From positions 1 to 56,295 of the forward strand of contig JAGBBQ010000086.1 of assembly GCA_017938425.1 (NCBI GenBank): a DNA stretch of 56,295 nt, read 5' to 3'. Below the pieces are notes generated by a model. The model was not told the origin of the DNA. It did not search any database and saw only the letters and a program-made list of their open reading frames with translations. This DNA is from Clostridia bacterium. Its GTDB lineage: Bacteria; Bacillota; Clostridia; Oscillospirales; CAG-272. Made by a program: the position numbers and the translations under genes. This document shows, piece after piece, positions 1 through 56,295 of the stretch. The first letter of the stretch is position 1; every line of letters begins with the position of its first letter.

Positions 1-384
1 CGATGAGGAGAAATTTTAAAAGACAAGGCGTAAGGGCGCGAGCAAGTCGAAGCCGTATTCTCATACGGCGAGCCGCGCGAGTCCACCGTCAACGCAGTAT
101 TTTGAATTTTATCCCATCGAGCTCGCCTCGATGAGGAAAAAATTTAAAAGACAAGGCGTAAGGGCGCGAGTAAGTCGAAGCCGTATTTGCATACGGCGAG
201 CCGCGCGAGGCGACCGACAACGCAGTATTTTGAATTTTATCCCTTCGGGCTCGCCTCGATGAGGAGAAATTTTAAAAGACAAGGCGTAAGGGCGCGAGTA
301 AGTCGAAGCCGTATTCTCATACGGCGAGCCGCGCGAGTCGACCGACAACGCAGTATTTTGAAATTTATCCCATCGAGGGTCTGA
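1..384. repeat. Tandem array of a 128-bp unit with 3 copies (1-128, 129-256, 257-~384). It is truncated by the window edge and may continue upstream.
   Basis: The unit-start motif cgatgagga recurs at 1, 129 and 257. Copies differ by only a few substitutions. Each carries the hairpin gccgtat-NNNN-atacggc (e.g. 52-69) and catcgag-ctcgc-ctcgatg across the unit junction. The last copy abuts or overlaps the stop codon (365-367) of the minus-strand CDS. Confidence 0.9.
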
Positions 385-19972: not shown

Positions 19973-21451
19973 ATGAACGAGAAGTTTTTTGTTACCTACG
20001 AGCAGTTCGGCGCGGTCGGCGACGGAAAAACCGATGACATTGAGGCCATTGCGAAGGCGCACGCATATGCAAACGAGCACCGCCTGCCCGTGAAGGCAAA
20101 GGACGATGCGACCTATTACATCGGCGGCAAATGCTGCCCCGTTACGGTCAAGACCTCGACCGACTTCGGCAAGGCGCATTTCATCATCGACGACAGAGCG
20201 TGCGAGGCGCATAACAAGCATATCTTCTACGTGACGAGCGACTGCGAATACTACCCCGTTCAGATCGACAAGCTCGACAAGGGGCAGAAGAAGATCGATA
20301 TTCCCCACAAGGGCAACATCTTCGTTAAGGTCAGAAACGAAAACAAGCGCGTTTATATCCGCTACGGCGCAAACCAGAACAACGGCAACGCACTGATCGA
20401 CTACTTCACCGTGGATAAGGACGGCAACATCGGCACGCTGATGGCCTGGCAGTTCGACGAGGTGACCGAGGCTTGGGCGAAGTCCACCGATGAGGAGCCG
20501 ATCCGCATCGAGGGCGGCACCTTTACAACGATCGCAAACCTCGATCCCTTCGAGAAGCGCAGATACCACAGCCGCGCCTTCTCCTGCAAGCGCTCGCACG
20601 TGCATTTTCGCAATATCACGCATCTGATCTCGGGTGAGCCCGAGCCCGAGGAGCATTACAGCTCGCCCTATGCGGGCTTCCTCTGCATTGAGGACTGCTA
20701 TGACGTCACGGTCGAGAACGTGACCTTCACGCCCCACAGGACCTATCACTTCACGATGGCGAACGGCGTCATCAATGCGATCGGCACCTACGAGATGAAC
20801 GGCGGCGGCACGATCGGCTTAAAGCTCATCGGCCTCAGGCAGACGATCGACATCCAGGACTCCCGCTACTGGGGACTGATGGGAACGAACTTCTGCAAGG
20901 ATATGCTGCTCGAGGACTGCAAGATCTCGCGCTTTGACGCGCACTGCGGCGTGCATAACGTGACGATGCGGGGCTGCGAGTTCGGCCACGTGACGATGGA
21001 GGTCATCGGCTTCGGCAATTTCCTTTACGAGAACGGCATCAACCACGGCTCGCGCTTCTTCCTTCTGCGCGGTGACTACGGCTCCTTCTTCAAGGGTGAC
21101 GTGACCATCCGCCACGCAGTCTGGGATGCCATTCCCAACAGCGTAAACGGCAAATCCTTCTTCTTCAATGCATCCAATGGCGGCACGCACGATTTCGGCT
21201 ACACCTGCGAGATGCCGAGGCACATCCTGCTGGAGGACGTGCTGATCGACGATAGCCGCATCGGTGAGGGACACGAGGAGCCCTGCCTCTTCAACGCCTA
21301 CTGCAAGACGCTCGACTGCGAGCGCCCCTTCCCCTACGGTCTGCCCGAGACGATCACGCTGAAAAACGTGCGCACCAAGAGCGGCAAGCCCGTGAAGATC
21401 TTCGCGGACGCTTCGCTCTTCGAGGGTGTGAAGGTTATCATCGAGGACTGA
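19973..21451 (+). CDS. Right-handed beta-helix protein with an N-terminal pectate-lyase-3-like domain (copy 1). No signal peptide; function unknown, possibly a glycoside hydrolase or lyase.
   Basis: N-terminus YEQFGAVGDGKTDDIEAIAKAHAYANEH matches the pectate_lyase_3 / GH28-55-like motif GAxGDGxTDD. 492 aa; RBS aaggaga; no hydrophobic leader. Confidence 0.65.
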   Translation: MNEKFFVTYEQFGAVGDGKTDDIEAIAKAHAYANEHRLPVKAKDDATYYIGGKCCPVTVKTSTDFGKAHFIIDDRACEAHNKHIFYVTSDCEYYPVQIDKLDKGQKKIDIPHKGNIFVKVRNENKRVYIRYGANQNNGNALIDYFTVDKDGNIGTLMAWQFDEVTEAWAKSTDEEPIRIEGGTFTTIANLDPFEKRRYHSRAFSCKRSHVHFRNITHLISGEPEPEEHYSSPYAGFLCIEDCYDVTVENVTFTPHRTYHFTMANGVINAIGTYEMNGGGTIGLKLIGLRQTIDIQDSRYWGLMGTNFCKDMLLEDCKISRFDAHCGVHNVTMRGCEFGHVTMEVIGFGNFLYENGINHGSRFFLLRGDYGSFFKGDVTIRHAVWDAIPNSVNGKSFFFNASNGGTHDFGYTCEMPRHILLEDVLIDDSRIGEGHEEPCLFNAYCKTLDCERPFPYGLPETITLKNVRTKSGKPVKIFADASLFEGVKVIIED

Positions 21452-21599: not shown

Positions 21600-23078
21600 T
21601 TGGAAAACGGGCAATTGGTTACTTACGAGGCGTTCGGCGCGGTCGGAGACGGAAAAACCGACGATATGGAGGCGATCATCCGCGCACACGCATATGCGAA
21701 TGAGCACACCCTTCCCGTAAGGGCACGGGACGATGCGACCTATTATATCGGAGGACGGGCGGGCGCCATCGTGATCCGCACCTCCACCGATTTCGGCAAG
21801 GCTCACTTCGTAATTGATGACAGAAGTGTCGAGGTGCCGGGCGAGCATCTTTTCTTTGTTAACAGCGATTTTGACTACTATCCTGTACATATTGACAAAA
21901 TCGACAAGGGTCAGAAGCGGATCGATATTCCGCACGAGGGCAATATTTACGTTAAGGCCGTGAACGAAAACAAGCGCGTATATATCCGCTACGGCGCGAA
22001 CGCGAACAGCGGCGCGGCATTGCGCGACTACTTCACCGTGGATGGGGACGGCAACATCGGCACATGGATGCCATGGCAATTTGACGAGGTGACCGAGGCA
22101 TATGCAAAATCCACCGATGAGAGAGCCATCACCATCCGCGGCGGTATTTTTGAGAACATCGTCAACCTCGACACGCTCGAAAACCGCCGTTATTACGGAC
22201 GCGGTATTCTCTGCACGCGCTCGCACGTGCATTTTCTCGATATGACGCATCTCGTTACGGGAGAGCCCGAGCCCGAAGCGCATTACAGCTCGCCCTACGG
22301 CGGCTTTCTCAACGTGGACGAATGCGTGGACGTAACGGTGGAAAATTTGCTTCTCACGCCGCACAGGACCTACTACTTCACGATGCCGGGCGGCGGCATC
22401 AACGCGATGGGCTCCTACGGCATCACCGCCTGCGGCGCGATCGGCTTAAAGCTGATCGGACTCAAGCAAACGGTTGATATTCTCGACACCCGCTATTGGG
22501 GGCTGATGGGCTCCAATTACTGCAAGGATATGCTGCTCGATCGCTGCGTGATCTCGCGCTTTGACGCGCATCAGGGCGTGCATAACGTGACGATGCGGGA
22601 TTGCACCTTCGGCCATGCGAAGCTGCAGGTGATCGGCTTCGGCGAATGTCTCATCGAGCGCTGTCGGATGCACGGCGGCCTCCTGATGCTGCTGCGCAGC
22701 GACTACGGCTCCTTCTTCGACGGCAGCGTCACCGTGCGCGACTGCGAATGGAGGATCCTTCCCTATGACAAGATCGGCTACCTTCTCGCCGCAGGCAACA
22801 ACGGCAAGCACGATTTCGGCTATCCCTGTATGCTCCCGAGGAATATTTCCGTTGAAAACCTGCTGATCGACGATACGGAAACAAACGCAGACTATGCGGG
22901 CACCTATCTTTTCAGCGACTACGATACCTACAGCGAGGAATTCGCAAACGGCAGACCCTACCCCTACGGACTGCCCGAGACGGTGACACTGAAAAACCTG
23001 CGCACCAAGAGCGGCCGCCCGATCGCGCACTTCAAGGACGAACGGCTCTTCCCCGGCGTGAAGGTAACGGAAGAATGA
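21600..23078 (+). CDS. Right-handed beta-helix protein, paralog of 19973-21451 (copy 2)
   Basis: Collinear with copy 1 (YEAFGAVGDGKTDDMEAI, STDFGKAHFVIDDR, NENKRVYIRYGAN, SRFDAHQGVHNVTMR, PYGLPETVTLKNLRTKSGRP). A TTG at 21600, 7 nt after ggagg, gives exactly 492 aa like copy 1. The track start at 21471 lies inside the upstream terminator. Confidence 0.65.
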   Translation: MENGQLVTYEAFGAVGDGKTDDMEAIIRAHAYANEHTLPVRARDDATYYIGGRAGAIVIRTSTDFGKAHFVIDDRSVEVPGEHLFFVNSDFDYYPVHIDKIDKGQKRIDIPHEGNIYVKAVNENKRVYIRYGANANSGAALRDYFTVDGDGNIGTWMPWQFDEVTEAYAKSTDERAITIRGGIFENIVNLDTLENRRYYGRGILCTRSHVHFLDMTHLVTGEPEPEAHYSSPYGGFLNVDECVDVTVENLLLTPHRTYYFTMPGGGINAMGSYGITACGAIGLKLIGLKQTVDILDTRYWGLMGSNYCKDMLLDRCVISRFDAHQGVHNVTMRDCTFGHAKLQVIGFGECLIERCRMHGGLLMLLRSDYGSFFDGSVTVRDCEWRILPYDKIGYLLAAGNNGKHDFGYPCMLPRNISVENLLIDDTETNADYAGTYLFSDYDTYSEEFANGRPYPYGLPETVTLKNLRTKSGRPIAHFKDERLFPGVKVTEE

Positions 23079-23098
23079 CCGCCTGCGTATAATGAGTT

Positions 23099-23805
23099 GG
23101 AAGAAAACCGCAGTTTTTCAACCTTAATTCCTTTTAAATTTGATATTAAGAAAAAAGAGGCACTGATTAAACAGTACCTCTTCTTTTTTCGTTTTCGGTT
23201 ATCTCGGGAGGCGCGATGCAAGGCATCGCGAATGAAATCCGCGAAAGCGGATAAAATAGGAAGCCCCTTGGGGCAAACAGATCCCGAGGAGAAATCGTCG
23301 TTCTTCGCCCCGAAGGCGTATATACATACGCCGAGAGGAAGAAAACGGCGATAGAAAACGAAAATACAATAAGAACGGAAGAAAACCGCAAGGTTTTCAA
23401 CCTTAATTCCTTTTAAATCTGATATAAAGAAAAAAAGAGGCACTGATTAAACAGTACCTCTTCCTTTTTTCGTTTTCGGTTATCCCGGGAGGCGGAAGCC
23501 CCAAGTTTTCGTTTTCGGTTCTACCGGGAGGCGCGATGCAAGGCATCGCGAATGAAATCCGCGAAAGCGGATGAAATAGGAAGCCCCTTGGGGCAAACAG
23601 ATCCCGAGGAGAAATCGTCGGCTGAGCCGCGAGAAGCGTACAAGCGTACGCTGAGCGGTGAAACGGCGATAGAAAACGAAAATCCGATAAGATGGAAGAA
23701 AACCGTAGGTTTTCAACCTCAATACCTTATCAAATACGCAAAAAGAAAAGGAAGAGGCACTGATTAAACAGTACCTCTTCTTTTTCGTTTTCGGTTCTAC
23801 CGGGA
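23099..23805. repeat. Head-to-tail array (about 2.4 copies) of an approximately 280-nt, highly structured, non-coding unit
   Basis: Units start at 23099, 23377 and 23694, each with motif ggaagaaaaccg. Each holds multiple conserved hairpins, two of them with GNRA loops. Copy 2 has a ~39-nt internal partial duplication (23467-23505). The array fills the gap between convergent stops at 23078 and 23820. Confidence 0.9.
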
Positions 23806-23819
23806 TATGTTCCCCAAAA

Positions 23820-24665
23820 TTAATATTTTTTGTTTTGGAGTGCAGTCTCCGTATTGTATATCGCCTGCTTCGCCGCCTTATCCGAATGCATAACGATATA
23901 ACTGTAGATACTGTCAAAAAGCGCGAGCTGCGCATAGCGCGAGGAAAGACCGAGGATCGAATACTTGGTTTCGGCGGATCTCGTGAAGAGCGCGTAATCC
24001 GCGGCGGAGACGATCGGGGACTCGCCGTAGTTGGTCACACAGACGGTGGTGGCGCCGCAGATCTTGCAAAGGCGCAGGGCATCCACGATGTCCTTGGAGG
24101 CGCCCGAATGCGAGATGCCGATGGCAACGCTGCCCCGCTTCAGATGCGAGGCGATGATCGCCTGCATATGGTTATCGCAGCAGGCCTGCGCAGAGAGACC
24201 GAGGCGCAGCAGCTTATGCGCGGCATCCTGCGCAATGGCGGCAGAGTTTCCAAGCCCGAAAAGCACCGTTCTATCACTCTTCATCACAAGCTCTGCCACA
24301 CGCGCAAGCTGCTCGGCATCCAGGACCGACTCGGTATTCTTCAGCGATTCGACCACGCCTGCGTTTTGCTTTTTAAAGATCTCGTAGCAGGAGTCCTCGC
24401 GCGTGATCTCACCGCCGAGAGAGGAGGAGGCGCCCATCTCGCTCGCGAGACGGAGCTTCAGCGCCTGGTAGCCCTCCAGTCCCAGCCTGCGCGAAAGACG
24501 CACCACCGTGGCATCGCCGCAGCCACAGCATTTTGCAAGCTCGGAGATCGAAAGCGCGATCATCTCGCCCGTATTATTTAATATATAATTCGCGATCCTT
24601 TTTTCCGCGGGCCCCATCTCATCCCGAAGAAAGCGAAGCTTATGCGTGATCGATTCCATTTTCAC
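23820..24665 (-). CDS. MurR/RpiR family transcriptional regulator (HTH_6 + SIS domain)
   Basis: N-terminal RIANYILNN...ISELAKCCGCGDATVVRLSRRLGLEGYQALK and a C-terminal SIS domain (LFGLGNSAAIAQDAAHKLLRLG ... ISHSGASKD). Confidence 0.92.
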   Translation of the reverse strand: MKMESITHKLRFLRDEMGPAEKRIANYILNNTGEMIALSISELAKCCGCGDATVVRLSRRLGLEGYQALKLRLASEMGASSSLGGEITREDSCYEIFKKQNAGVVESLKNTESVLDAEQLARVAELVMKSDRTVLFGLGNSAAIAQDAAHKLLRLGLSAQACCDNHMQAIIASHLKRGSVAIGISHSGASKDIVDALRLCKICGATTVCVTNYGESPIVSAADYALFTRSAETKYSILGLSSRYAQLALFDSIYSYIVMHSDKAAKQAIYNTETALQNKKY

Positions 24666-54336: not shown

Positions 54337-55638
54337 TTACATCTCCAAGCTGTCGATCTTAAGGAGAAAATCGTAAATGCTCATAATGAGATAGCCTTTT
54401 TCGTTGGTCCAAGGCTTGATAATATCACCAACGATAATAATCTTCTTAAACGAATCATCAATGTGATCAAGAGAAGCAGTCTCTTGATCCATTTTTTCTC
54501 TGTCGGGGATTGCAAAAGCGGATTGGATATAATATCTCTTACTTCCGAGATTGCATACAAAGTCTACCTCGGAGTGAACGGTAGTTCGTTTTCCTTCTGC
54601 GTTCTTACGAGTGTAGTTTACAATACCAACATCAACGTTATAGCCACGAATCAAAAGCTCGTTATAAATGATGTTCTCCATAATATGAGTACGCTCTTGC
54701 TGACGGAAATTCAGCGCAGCGTTACGCAAACCGATATCGGTAAAGTAATATTTGAATGGACTGTCAATATATTTTCGTCCCTTGACATCGTATCGCTCTG
54801 CGCGATTGATAATAAAAGCGTTGGTTAAATAGGTGATATAGTTTGAAACGGTAACCTCGGAGGTGCTGATCTGCGAGCTTTTGAAGGTTTTCGCAAGCTT
54901 GGGGGGATTGGTGAGTGAACCGATAGCAGATGCTAAAATCTCAACGAGCGTGTCCATTACCACGTCACCCCCGATATTATGGCGTTCGATAACGTCCTTA
55001 ATATAGGTTTCGCTGAGGTTATCGCGAAGATATTTGGATTTGTCTGCATCGCGCTTTTTAGATAAAACCAACGGCAGACCTCCGTAGGTCGAATACTCGG
55101 TGAATGCCTCGTATTTATCGCCTTCATACACGGAGAAGAATTCCGAGAAGGAAAGCGGATACACGCGCACCTCATCGCCTCTGCCACGGAATTCGGTCAT
55201 AACGTCCGATGAAAGAAATCTGGAATTACTGCCTGTGATATACACGTCAACATTGTTGCGGCGTAAAAGACCGTTCAGGATACCGTAAAGACGGATAGGC
55301 TCGTTTTTGCGAAGCTCCTCGCCCGAAATAGCGAACTGAACCTCGTCGAGCAGAACGTAGTACATATCCTTGCCGTCCGAGATTTTGCTGTGCAGAAATT
55401 CGGATAATCTATCAGGATCACGCAGCTGTTTATTATCATCGTCGTCAAGAGCAACCTTGATAATATGATCCTCGCTTACACCGTTTTCAAGAAGATAGTT
55501 ATAGTACAGGTTAAATAGCAAATAACTTTTACCGCATCTGCGAATGCCGGTGATTATTTTGATAAGGCCATTTTCTTTTCTGTCGATGATCTGATTTAAA
55601 TAAAGGTCACGGTTAATACTCTTCATATATGTCTCCAC
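54337..55638 (-). CDS. AAA+ ATPase with a C-terminal DUF4143-type domain (COG1373-like ATP-binding protein)
   Basis: Walker A in ITGIRRCGKSYLL, Walker B in MYYVLLDEVQ. The C-terminal part has a restriction-endonuclease-like pattern (GYNVDVG ... EVDFVC ... YYIQS). 433 aa. Confidence 0.8.
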   Translation of the reverse strand: METYMKSINRDLYLNQIIDRKENGLIKIITGIRRCGKSYLLFNLYYNYLLENGVSEDHIIKVALDDDDNKQLRDPDRLSEFLHSKISDGKDMYYVLLDEVQFAISGEELRKNEPIRLYGILNGLLRRNNVDVYITGSNSRFLSSDVMTEFRGRGDEVRVYPLSFSEFFSVYEGDKYEAFTEYSTYGGLPLVLSKKRDADKSKYLRDNLSETYIKDVIERHNIGGDVVMDTLVEILASAIGSLTNPPKLAKTFKSSQISTSEVTVSNYITYLTNAFIINRAERYDVKGRKYIDSPFKYYFTDIGLRNAALNFRQQERTHIMENIIYNELLIRGYNVDVGIVNYTRKNAEGKRTTVHSEVDFVCNLGSKRYYIQSAFAIPDREKMDQETASLDHIDDSFKKIIIVGDIIKPWTNEKGYLIMSIYDFLLKIDSLEM

Positions 55639-55758
55639 TTTGTGATTTTATGCAAATGCAAGGTTTTACAAAGTAATAATACCATATTATCCCCTAAAAG
55701 TCAAGAGATATTCGACAATTCACTTTTTGATTTTATGCAAGTACAAGGTTTCACAAAG
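55636..55758. repeat. Two 38-nt direct repeats (55636-55673 and 55721-55758), each containing an imperfect inverted repeat
   Basis: cactttGtgattttatgcaaAtGcaaggtttTacaaag versus cactttTtgattttatgcaaGtAcaaggtttCacaaag (34 of 38 identical). They lie in the upstream/5' region of the ATPase gene, and each ends in ...(t/c)acaaag, mirroring the 5' cttt(g/t)tga. Confidence 0.8.
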
Positions 55759-56048
55759 CAAAAGTGCCATCTCCTCTCAAAAATTGCATCGCTGTAAGCA
55801 AAGAAAACGCTCGGCGAAAAAGTTGGATTTATTTTCGAAAAGTGCCGGACTTCCTCCCTCTTCTGTGGTATGTTGTGCGAACAGGAGTTGCAAAAGGACA
55901 CATAATAGGCGAATAGAATAACAAGGCATCGGTGAAAAATCCGATGCTTTTTTAATAAAAACGCGCGTAAATTCATCAAGAATTATTGACGAAACAGCGA
56001 TTTTATGATATAATATGACATATTAAGAATGAATATGGAGGAAAATGA

Positions 56049-56270: not shown

Positions 56271-56295
56271 GTTTATACATATTTTTTCGTTTTTA

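Follow-up and report, generated by a model that had tools for sequence, protein, structure and literature searches.

The DNA analysed here, called the window throughout, is the 56,295-nt contig JAGBBQ010000086.1 (positions 1 to 56,295 of the forward strand; assembly GCA_017938425.1) of a Clostridia bacterium assigned to CAG-272 (Oscillospirales). Our subject is a repeat array located between two convergent genes, an open reading frame (ORF) on the + strand that ends at 23078 and, on the - strand, the ORF of an RpiR-family regulator with its stop at 23820. The gap between the two stop codons is 741 nt long, and positions 23097-23805 are occupied by 2.4 head-to-tail copies of a non-coding unit, of which the full ones measure 280-317 nt. 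An earlier, sequence-only reading had reported 2.4 copies filling the convergent gap, and a repeat finder and blastn agree, with the first copy starting at 23097. Direct-repeat analysis places the three starts at 23097, 23377 and 23694, and blastn gives an inter-copy identity of 78-85%. The repeat finder also detected an inverted repeat linking 23174-23196 with 23354-23376, and the internal 39-nt partial duplication previously noticed in copy 2 was found again (23464-23494 and 23503-23533, spacing 39). Indels between the copies kept Tandem Repeats Finder from reporting the array, which both the repeat finder and BLAST detect. No ORF is conserved across the copies in any frame, as had been claimed, since 1-nt indels between copies shift every frame. 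The gap is far more structured than expected by chance, the z-score of its minimum free energy (MFE) against shuffled sequence being -14.4 for the + strand and -9.4 for the - strand. The array is therefore real, non-coding and densely structured.

Each unit combines the small H1 hairpin with an intrinsic-terminator hairpin (T1, T2 and T3 in the successive units) and a core domain of 135-300 nt (Table 1). Perfect H1 copies are present at 23382-23399 and 23699-23715. The H1 hairpin with a GCAA loop that was first drawn for copy 1 (GAAAACC-GCAA-GGTTTTC) exists in this perfect form in copy 2, whereas copy 1 has a GCA loop and a mismatch. The stem variants GAAAACC/GGTTTTC and GAAAAAC/GTTTTTC are compensatory, and the loops found are GCAA, GTAA, GTA, GCA and GAA. 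T1 is flanked by an A-run upstream and a T-run downstream and is thus bidirectional in the window; its C.A mismatch on the + strand becomes a U.G pair on the - strand. The hallmark of intrinsic terminators, a G+C-rich hairpin followed directly by a U-tract, is present, and the terminator scan called T2 and T3 on the - strand; T3 is likely the terminator of the RpiR gene. On the - strand, all ten terminator variants consist of a hairpin followed by a CUUUUCUUUUU-type tail; on the + strand, 5-8 non-U bases separate the stem from the T-run in about four of the ten.

The core is closed by a perfect 11-bp helix, P1 (TTTTCGTTTTC/GAAAACGAAAA), with further TATC/GATA pairing past a 3-nt bulge, and the 5' strand of P1 is the T-tract downstream of the terminator hairpin. 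Inside P1, a three-way junction is predicted for every copy, by RNAfold for single copies and by RNAalifold. Helix P2 (CTCGGGA/TCCCGAG) bears a hairpin, P2c (GCCC-CTTG-GGGC), and up to two optional ones, CGCGATGC-AAG-GCATCGCG and ATCCGC-GAAA-GCGGAT. Helix P3 (ATCGTCG/CGGCGAT) contains an invariant U.G pair and holds P3a and a hairpin with a 7-bp stem and a 4-nt loop, P3b. The long-range helix, the CTCGGGA/TCCCGAG helix with its three hairpins and the 7-bp hairpin had all been proposed on paper, and all were recovered by the two folding programs. In the smallest natural core, of 134 nt, the optional hairpins are missing and the three-way junction is kept. The junction strands are 7, 4-6 and 1 nt long, and the one between P1 and P2 reads GGUUAUC or GGUUCUA. 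A truncated 39-nt core module, present once inside unit 2, also ends the array beside the RpiR gene and is duplicated in several strains.

Table 1. Positions of the repeat units, their predicted structures and the flanking genes in the window.
Feature	Position	Strand	Basis or remarks
Repeat unit 1 (280 nt): H1, T1, core 1	23097..23376	+	direct repeats D1/D2, blastn
H1, copy 1, imperfect: GAAAACC-GCA-GTTTTTC, one mismatch	23103..23119	+	
Terminator hairpin T1: AAGAGGCACTG-ATTAAA-CAGTACCTCTT	23155..23182	either	
Core 1, three-way junction	23184..23365	+	RNAfold, RNAalifold, covariance model R1 (200.8 bits)
Core 1, P1	23186-23196 with 23354-23364		
Core 1, P2	23203-23209 with 23282-23288		hairpins inside: 23212-23230, 23237-23252, 23263-23274
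Core 1, P3	23294-23300 with 23346-23352		contains 7-bp hairpin 23315-23332
Repeat unit 2 (317 nt): H1, T2, 39-nt partial core duplication, core 2	23377..23693	+	direct repeats, blastn
Terminator hairpin T2: 16 pairs plus T-run	23430..23467	-	terminator scan
39-nt partial core: P1 5' strand, P2 start, GGAAGCCCC	23467..23505	+	
Core 2	23504..23683	+	R1 (226.9 bits); P1 23506-23516 with 23672-23682; 7-bp hairpin 23635-23652
Partial unit 3: H1, T3, core cut off after GGGATATGTTCCCC	23694..23819	+	adjoins RpiR stop codon
Terminator hairpin T3: 12 pairs, then CTTTTCTTTT	23751..23780	-	terminator scan
Left flanking gene: second of two tandem paralogs, 492 amino acids, likely TTG start at 21600	21600..23078	+	3' end adjoins array
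Right flanking gene: RpiR/MurR-family regulator (HTH_6 + SIS), ATG at 24659	23820..24659	-	stop codon directly adjoins unit 3

Covariation was analysed on about 14 distinct sequences, which come from two species, are closely related and recombine, and one of the two alignments was fitted to the structural model. In this model-fitted alignment of 14 distinct copies, pairing holds in 94% of the cells, and both partners changed in 17 pairs, as against 7.5±1.7 in shuffles (reached in none of 500); all measures exceed those of all 500 shuffles and of all slid registers. In an unfitted MAFFT alignment of the P3 (3') arm, 97% of the cells are paired, and five pairs changed on both sides compared with 1.7±1.0 in shuffles, a count matched in one of 500. 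Five stem variants of P3b were found, and all are still paired: AGCGTAC/GTACGCT, GGCGTAC/GTACGCC, GGTGTAC/GTACACC, GGCGTAT/ATACGCC and the G.U intermediate GGCGTAC/GTACGCT. These counts bear out the compensatory stem changes that had been proposed. The two versions of the 7-bp hairpin in the window, described at first as completely different in sequence, are compensated, but only two of the seven stem pairs and three of the four loop positions (ATAC versus AAGC) differ. The terminator stems GGAAGAGG/CCTCTTCC, GGTAGAGG/CCTCTACC and GGATGAGG/CCTCATCC are likewise mutually compensated. Some of the apparent compensations are swaps of whole modules.

The signals that indicate a strand differ between the parts of the unit. 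Counted over the cores, 29 cells are G.U and nine are A.C, which favours the + strand; the invariant U.G pair of P3 would be a C.A mismatch on the - strand, the GNRA loops (GCAA, GUAA, GAAA) and the CUUG loop read on the + strand, and the + strand MFE is the lower one in eight of eight cores. The terminator hairpin is more stable on the - strand in all ten distinct variants; for the link region, the - strand MFE is lower in ten of ten variants and the z-score better in nine of ten, and only on this strand does the U-tract directly follow the stem in every variant. The + strand orientation that the sequence-only reading had read from the tetraloops thus holds for the cores, by their G.U pairs, loops and MFE, but not for the terminators. 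No sigma-70-type promoter was found at a conserved position on either strand across the variants.

Exact-protein look-ups with the RpiR protein and the left paralog yielded 11 contigs of the same species from metagenomes and metagenome-assembled genomes (MAGs), whose RpiR genes are 99.3-100% identical at the nucleotide level; most of these contigs stop within the array. The array site and its right-hand end point are shared by ten same-species contigs and by two contigs of a second species, and the end point by the RpiR stop is identical in all strains and in the second species. Between these limits the array is a mosaic: among strains with at least 99.3% identical flanks, both the copy number and the hairpin modules vary. 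The complete gap of one other strain measures 547 nt, compared with 741 nt in the window. The optional P2 hairpins are present in some strains and missing in others, some strains have an unrelated P2 insert, and some have a P3 insert of 130 nt with three hairpins. Altogether, the cores include at least three P2 types and at least four P3 types and the links at least ten terminator variants, in combinations that differ by strain. Strain comparison thus shows that the array expands, contracts and swaps hairpin modules. This hypervariability among near-identical strains, and the confinement of the array to one locus in two close species, had not been seen in the earlier description, which was otherwise largely accurate; its interpretation is partly supported.

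In the second species, the RpiR protein is 94% identical (84% at the DNA level) and the array is located at the same place. Its core, of 134 nt, shares 92-96% identity with most first-species cores and 88% with core 1 of the window; for its link the identity is 83-91%. Between the two species, third codon positions are 59% identical in the RpiR gene and 76% in the GlcD-like gene (gene identities 84% and 91%). The core is therefore more conserved across the two species than neighbouring synonymous sites. A part of the RpiR gene is also unusually similar: in codons 241-280, 33 of 40 third positions are identical (82%), as against about 22 of 40 elsewhere and ~55% in codons 1-240. Because these last 40 codons stand out, the array possibly lies in a recently shared recombination tract; the divergence is mosaic when compared with loci L022 and L023, which suggests a recombination breakpoint inside the RpiR gene, beside the array. 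Even in that tract, conservation is higher for the core (92-96%) than for the link (83-91%).

We then considered how far the element is distributed. No second copy of the unit was found elsewhere in the window by blastn or with covariance models built on the entire core (R1) and on the P3 arm (R2); these models match just the two window cores and, in other loci, just the expected orthologous copies. An invariant 19-mer of the element occurs at ten loci in 185,579 GTDB representative genomes (one per species), all of them by chance, and two patterns used on the JGI metagenomes gave 0 and 31 loci, each sharing at most ~50 nt with the array and likewise due to chance. The same kind of scan of IMG/VR returned one and two matching loci for two patterns; these were not inspected. 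All these collection scans rely on exact words, and diverged relatives could escape them. Blastn gave a single 57-nt chance match in phage records and none in plasmid records. When the six-frame translations of the repeat were used as a concatenated query against ORFs on other contigs, none of 8000 candidates was significant. The whole window has no Rfam 15 match at gathering score, in line with the original statement that the fold could not be matched to a familiar RNA family; at permissive E-values, the gap and four strain variants yielded only sub-threshold hairpin or terminator look-alikes (mir-6 at 37 bits versus a gathering score of 58, and a CsrB terminator segment). ARAGORN detected no tRNA or tmRNA in the window. 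The element is thus known from one locus in two close uncultured Clostridia species.

In relatives with an RpiR protein of 73-86% amino acid identity, the neighbour gene differs, and the gap holds unrelated hairpins or is just 42-95 nt long, with a plain terminator. In one of them (RpiR 82% identical; L024, 3841-4198), the gap of 358 nt contains at least five unrelated short G+C-rich hairpins with 4-6-nt loops, and convergent genes of this clade may often be separated by hairpin-rich gaps. Another Clostridia MAG has a 78% left-gene ortholog, with a terminator, a promoter and tRNA-like sequence behind it and no array. In L072 (5486-6157) and L073 (5055-5659), a consensus promoter, TTGACT-N17-TATAAT, is present, and the contigs break here; one sequence resembles tRNA-Pro(UGG) and another shares the anticodon-arm motif GCGCGCGTGCTTTGGG.

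The organization of the array appears to resemble that of three known kinds of repeat, the bacterial interspersed mosaic elements (BIMEs), the intergenic mosaic elements of Neisseria (NIMEs) and BOX, and it is a member of none of them, because the short unit, the high copy number, the dispersal and the specific repeat that characterize them were not found, no transposase was seen among the called genes near the array, and no sequence is shared. The clusters of repetitive extragenic palindromes (REPs) and BIMEs of Enterobacteria (e.g., REP325) are likewise hairpin repeats in alternating orientation at the 3' ends of genes and between convergent genes, and their copy number and location vary by strain. 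They act as partial terminators and as stabilisers of upstream mRNA (bioRxiv 10.64898/2026.03.23.713779). In contrast to the array, REPs are palindromes of 20-40 nt in hundreds of copies, with RAYT transposases and a GTAG or CGTC head; the array has a 280-nt unit, a three-way junction of 135-300 nt and a classical intrinsic terminator, and occurs at one locus in the 56-kb window. The P3 helix contains CGTC (ATCGTCG), a tetranucleotide that is no evidence of a REP head. NIMEs are variable, non-coding blocks of ~50-150 bp between short conserved inverted repeats, mosaic across strains (PMC1797815), and the array, with its variable cores and links set apart by alternating TTTTCGTTTTC/GAAAACGAAAA repeats, has a similar layout, a likeness of organization only and not of homology. 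NIMEs differ from it in being numerous and dispersed, with a 20-bp dRS3 repeat, more than 100 block families and a tie to variation of flanking surface-protein genes, and the two have no sequence similarity. BOX elements (boxA-boxB(n)-boxC) are modular and structured, occur in one species and its nearest relative, are sometimes cotranscribed with neighbours and are interspersed chromosome-wide (PMC3049150). The array shares with them a variable number of internal modules, extensive secondary structure and the confinement to a species and its nearest relative. Present in roughly 100 copies or more, BOX elements differ from it in being interspersed and not terminator-based, and there is no sequence similarity. 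In the tandem paralogous small RNA (sRNA) genes LhrC1-4 of Listeria, PrrF1/2 and OmrA/B, every unit has a recognisable promoter and a single-stranded seed that is conserved. The array is like them in having head-to-tail units that each end in an intrinsic terminator; it is unlike them in that no conserved promoter was found and that terminator and core favour opposite strands.

We tentatively favour the view that this is a lineage-restricted, BIME/NIME/BOX-like array of terminators and structures that acts on the 3' ends of the two flanking genes, a reading we hold as possible though not yet probable. It is supported by the observation that the array exactly fills the gap between the convergent stop codons, and further by the - strand terminators, the common predicted fold, the paired stem variants, the + strand signals of the cores and the conservation of the core between the two species. 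The repeated terminators would halt transcription arriving from either gene and would thereby insulate the convergent pair; termination would be strong for transcripts arriving from the RpiR side and weaker, in some strains poor, for those of the left gene. RNA reading through from the + strand gene would fold into the junction domain, and this domain would block 3' exonucleases or bind proteins as a structure of the 3' untranslated region, as in the REP/BIME clusters of E. coli. Recombination between its own internal repeats would be the mechanism by which the array changes. Transcription of the array, its strand and any effect on termination or RNA stability are predictions of this model. 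Clusters of REPs serve as terminators and stabilisers and, when located between convergent genes, correlate with a higher expression of both (bioRxiv 10.64898/2026.03.23.713779).

Several points weigh against this view. Transcription of the cores is itself a prediction, and since the cores lie behind a terminator as seen from either flanking gene, they would be produced only by read-through. The strand signals conflict, those of the cores pointing to the + strand and those of the terminators to the - strand, and the + strand preference of the cores is modest once base composition is controlled by z-scores. At the 3' end of the RpiR gene, relatives have just one terminator, of 42 nt, so nothing so elaborate is required for termination. 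The high identity between the species could reflect a recent recombination tract, and compensation in palindromes may also come from templated repair at the DNA level. Finally, some variants have chimeric, mismatched terminator stems, and selection is therefore relaxed rather than strict.

In one alternative explanation, the units are tandem genes for an undescribed structured RNA, each ~270 nt long and composed of H1, junction and terminator, with a promoter of its own and a trans-acting or protein-binding role, which we consider rather unlikely. Equally doubtful is the related proposal that a core of 135-220 nt is an undescribed structured RNA with a function of its own, kept in tandem by purifying selection on sequence and fold, with the terminators defining its 3' ends. 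The anatomy of the unit is that of an RNA gene ending in an intrinsic terminator, its core backbone, including the unpaired junction strands, is 92-96% identical across species and thus exceeds neighbouring synonymous sites, the junction is kept while peripheral hairpins are optional, as in many structured RNAs, and both the covariation and the G.U bias fit an RNA, which would be a new one given that Rfam has no match. In no set of variants does either strand have a promoter-like site at a constant position, which argues against such genes, as it does against the earlier suggestion that each unit is an independent sRNA gene. The strand that carries the terminator in every variant (-) is not the strand of the G.U pairs and tetraloops (+), the element is confined to one locus in two close species, and copy number and modules vary among near-identical strains, which would be unusual for a dosage-sensitive RNA gene. 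The array could also be neutral, a terminator-containing spacer that was locally duplicated in tandem and has no function, its apparent conservation and compensation arising from recent ancestry, gene conversion between copies and templated palindrome repair. Chimeric mismatched stems, freely varying unit number and content, relatives that have no array and the similarity of the RpiR 3' end across species, which suggests a shared recombination tract, are all consistent with this. Nevertheless, we regard it as quite unlikely: the core is clearly better kept than the link in the same tract, the variant stems are paired far more often than in shuffles, and minimal and expanded cores share the same junction.

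The array may instead be selfish or formerly mobile DNA, that is, a non-autonomous core of the REPIN or PATE type or a MITE (miniature inverted-repeat transposable element), bounded by TTTTCGTTTTC/GAAAACGAAAA, inserted beside terminators and amplified locally, with the hairpins as transposase recognition structures. A perfect 11-bp inverted repeat, as expected of the terminal inverted repeats (TIRs) of a MITE, does bound every core (131-298 bp from TIR to TIR), and the mosaic make-up, the strain-variable copy number, the position between convergent genes where the gene order departs from that of other species and an inter-species identity above that of the flanks, as expected from recent spread, all agree with mobility. 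Pneumococcal BOX, RUP and SPRITE repeats, likewise confined to a single species plus its closest relative, have been judged parasitic (PMC3049150). The array interrupts many metagenome contigs, as a mobile element might, but a tandem unit longer than the assembler k-mer alone accounts for such breaks. We nonetheless find a mobile origin unlikely. There is no second copy in the 56 kb, exact-word scans of GTDB and JGI and blastn against phages and plasmids gave nothing related (the three IMG/VR matches being uninspected), no direct repeat is common to the flanks of seven distinct cores, which hence show no consistent target-site duplication, and the genes called within ~6 kb to each side include no transposase. 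The REP- or MITE-like element first considered thus lost ground in the searches made. Both the site and the end point are the same in the two species, which is what vertical descent predicts. The long direct repeats of type I toxin-antitoxin systems (as E. coli LDR, Ibs/Sib and Hok/Sok) share with the array their long direct repeats, bidirectional terminators and a long-range closing helix, and one copy contains a 77-codon ORF on the - strand with a hydrophobic start (23167-23400). This ORF is frame-shifted in copy 2 and in strain variants, and no short ORF is conserved; with no conserved reading frame, the idea is effectively refuted and highly improbable.

Four further candidates were rejected. 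A CRISPR array does not fit, as the 39-nt sub-repeats are directly adjacent, with no spacer, and the genes called on its flanks belong to housekeeping or sugar metabolism. Self-cleaving ribozymes, the hammerhead included, were dismissed because no ribozyme family was found at E-values up to 10 and the P1-P2 strand is not CUGANGA; the likeness of the junction strand lengths (7, 4-6 and 1 nt) to those of the hammerhead is superficial. The GGA motifs expected of a CsrA sponge are not conserved, GGAAG changing to GGCAG or GAAAG, and an integron attC site was ruled out on sequence grounds.

A conserved junction domain inside a hypervariable array is an unusual combination, and no curated family explains it. 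If the favoured reading of a terminator-plus-structure array is true, such repeats exist in uncultured gut Clostridia, outside the usual taxa; we know of no described counterpart of REP/BIME, NIME or BOX elements in these bacteria. Strains with identical flanks differ in the number of terminators and RNA domains between their convergent genes, which would be a regulatory variation that involves no coding change. Should the core be an independent RNA, it would represent a new, compact three-way-junction family in which natural indels map the dispensable arms. For now, the narrow distribution and the lack of a link to function limit the significance. Elements of this kind also matter for assembly, which they fragment: at least 14 of the 18 metagenome contigs fetched via the genes flanking this array and a second array at the window start end within ~500 nt or less after entering one. 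Both arrays are assembly breakpoints and are therefore under-represented in MAGs.

The left flanking gene is the second of two tandem paralogs of 492 amino acids (19973-21451 and 21600-23078), neither of which has a Pfam match at E ≤0.001. They have 2,777 homologs at E ≤1e-50, mostly from uncultured Clostridia, one of which carries PF13229 (Beta_helix), and we take their N-terminal GAVGDGKTDD motif to suggest a pectate-lyase-like fold. A terminator and a promoter-like site are located between the two paralogs, each of which apparently has its own terminator and promoter. The genes past the RpiR gene encode a GlcD-like FAD oxidase, an Fe-S protein, an aldolase, PfkB, KduI and a mannose-6-phosphate isomerase-like cupin. 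Of the genes called up to ~6 kb from the array on both sides, none is a mobile-element gene.

The second non-coding tandem array (window 1-377; period 128 nt, at least 2.9 copies, 92% matches) is cut by the window start and located directly 3' of a - strand NlpC/P60 + DUF11 gene (365-2896); its structure is moderate (z about -4). One metagenome contig that carries the same NlpC/P60 + DUF11 gene likewise breaks off within these repeats. The second array has a 25-nt hairpin module in common with main-array copy 1 (CGAAG-GCCGTAT-TCTC-ATACGGC-GAG versus CGAAG-GGCGTAT-ATAC-ATACGCC-GAG), with a G-C to C-G flip between the two. This similarity is not significant: the local alignment scores 30, barely more than the best shuffle (28), and the second array goes undetected by the P3 covariance model. 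The two arrays are probably unrelated. At the other end of the window (56282-56293), the last bases are ATATTTTTTCGTTTTTA, just past the stop of a small ORF that by eye is XRE-type HTH-like. Among them is the 12-mer TTTTTTCGTTTT, which matches the P1 5' strand plus T-tract of the unit exactly, and the window stops there. Upstream of this end is a 63-nt direct repeat (55636-55698 and 55721-55783; 78% identity, spacing 85 nt) with an internal inverted repeat, ACTTTGT...ACAAAGT. It is non-coding and located ~250 nt upstream of a strongly promoter-like sequence, TTGACG-N17-TATAAT (~55987-56015), and a small regulator gene, and judging by this arrangement, the 63-nt repeats may be operator sites.

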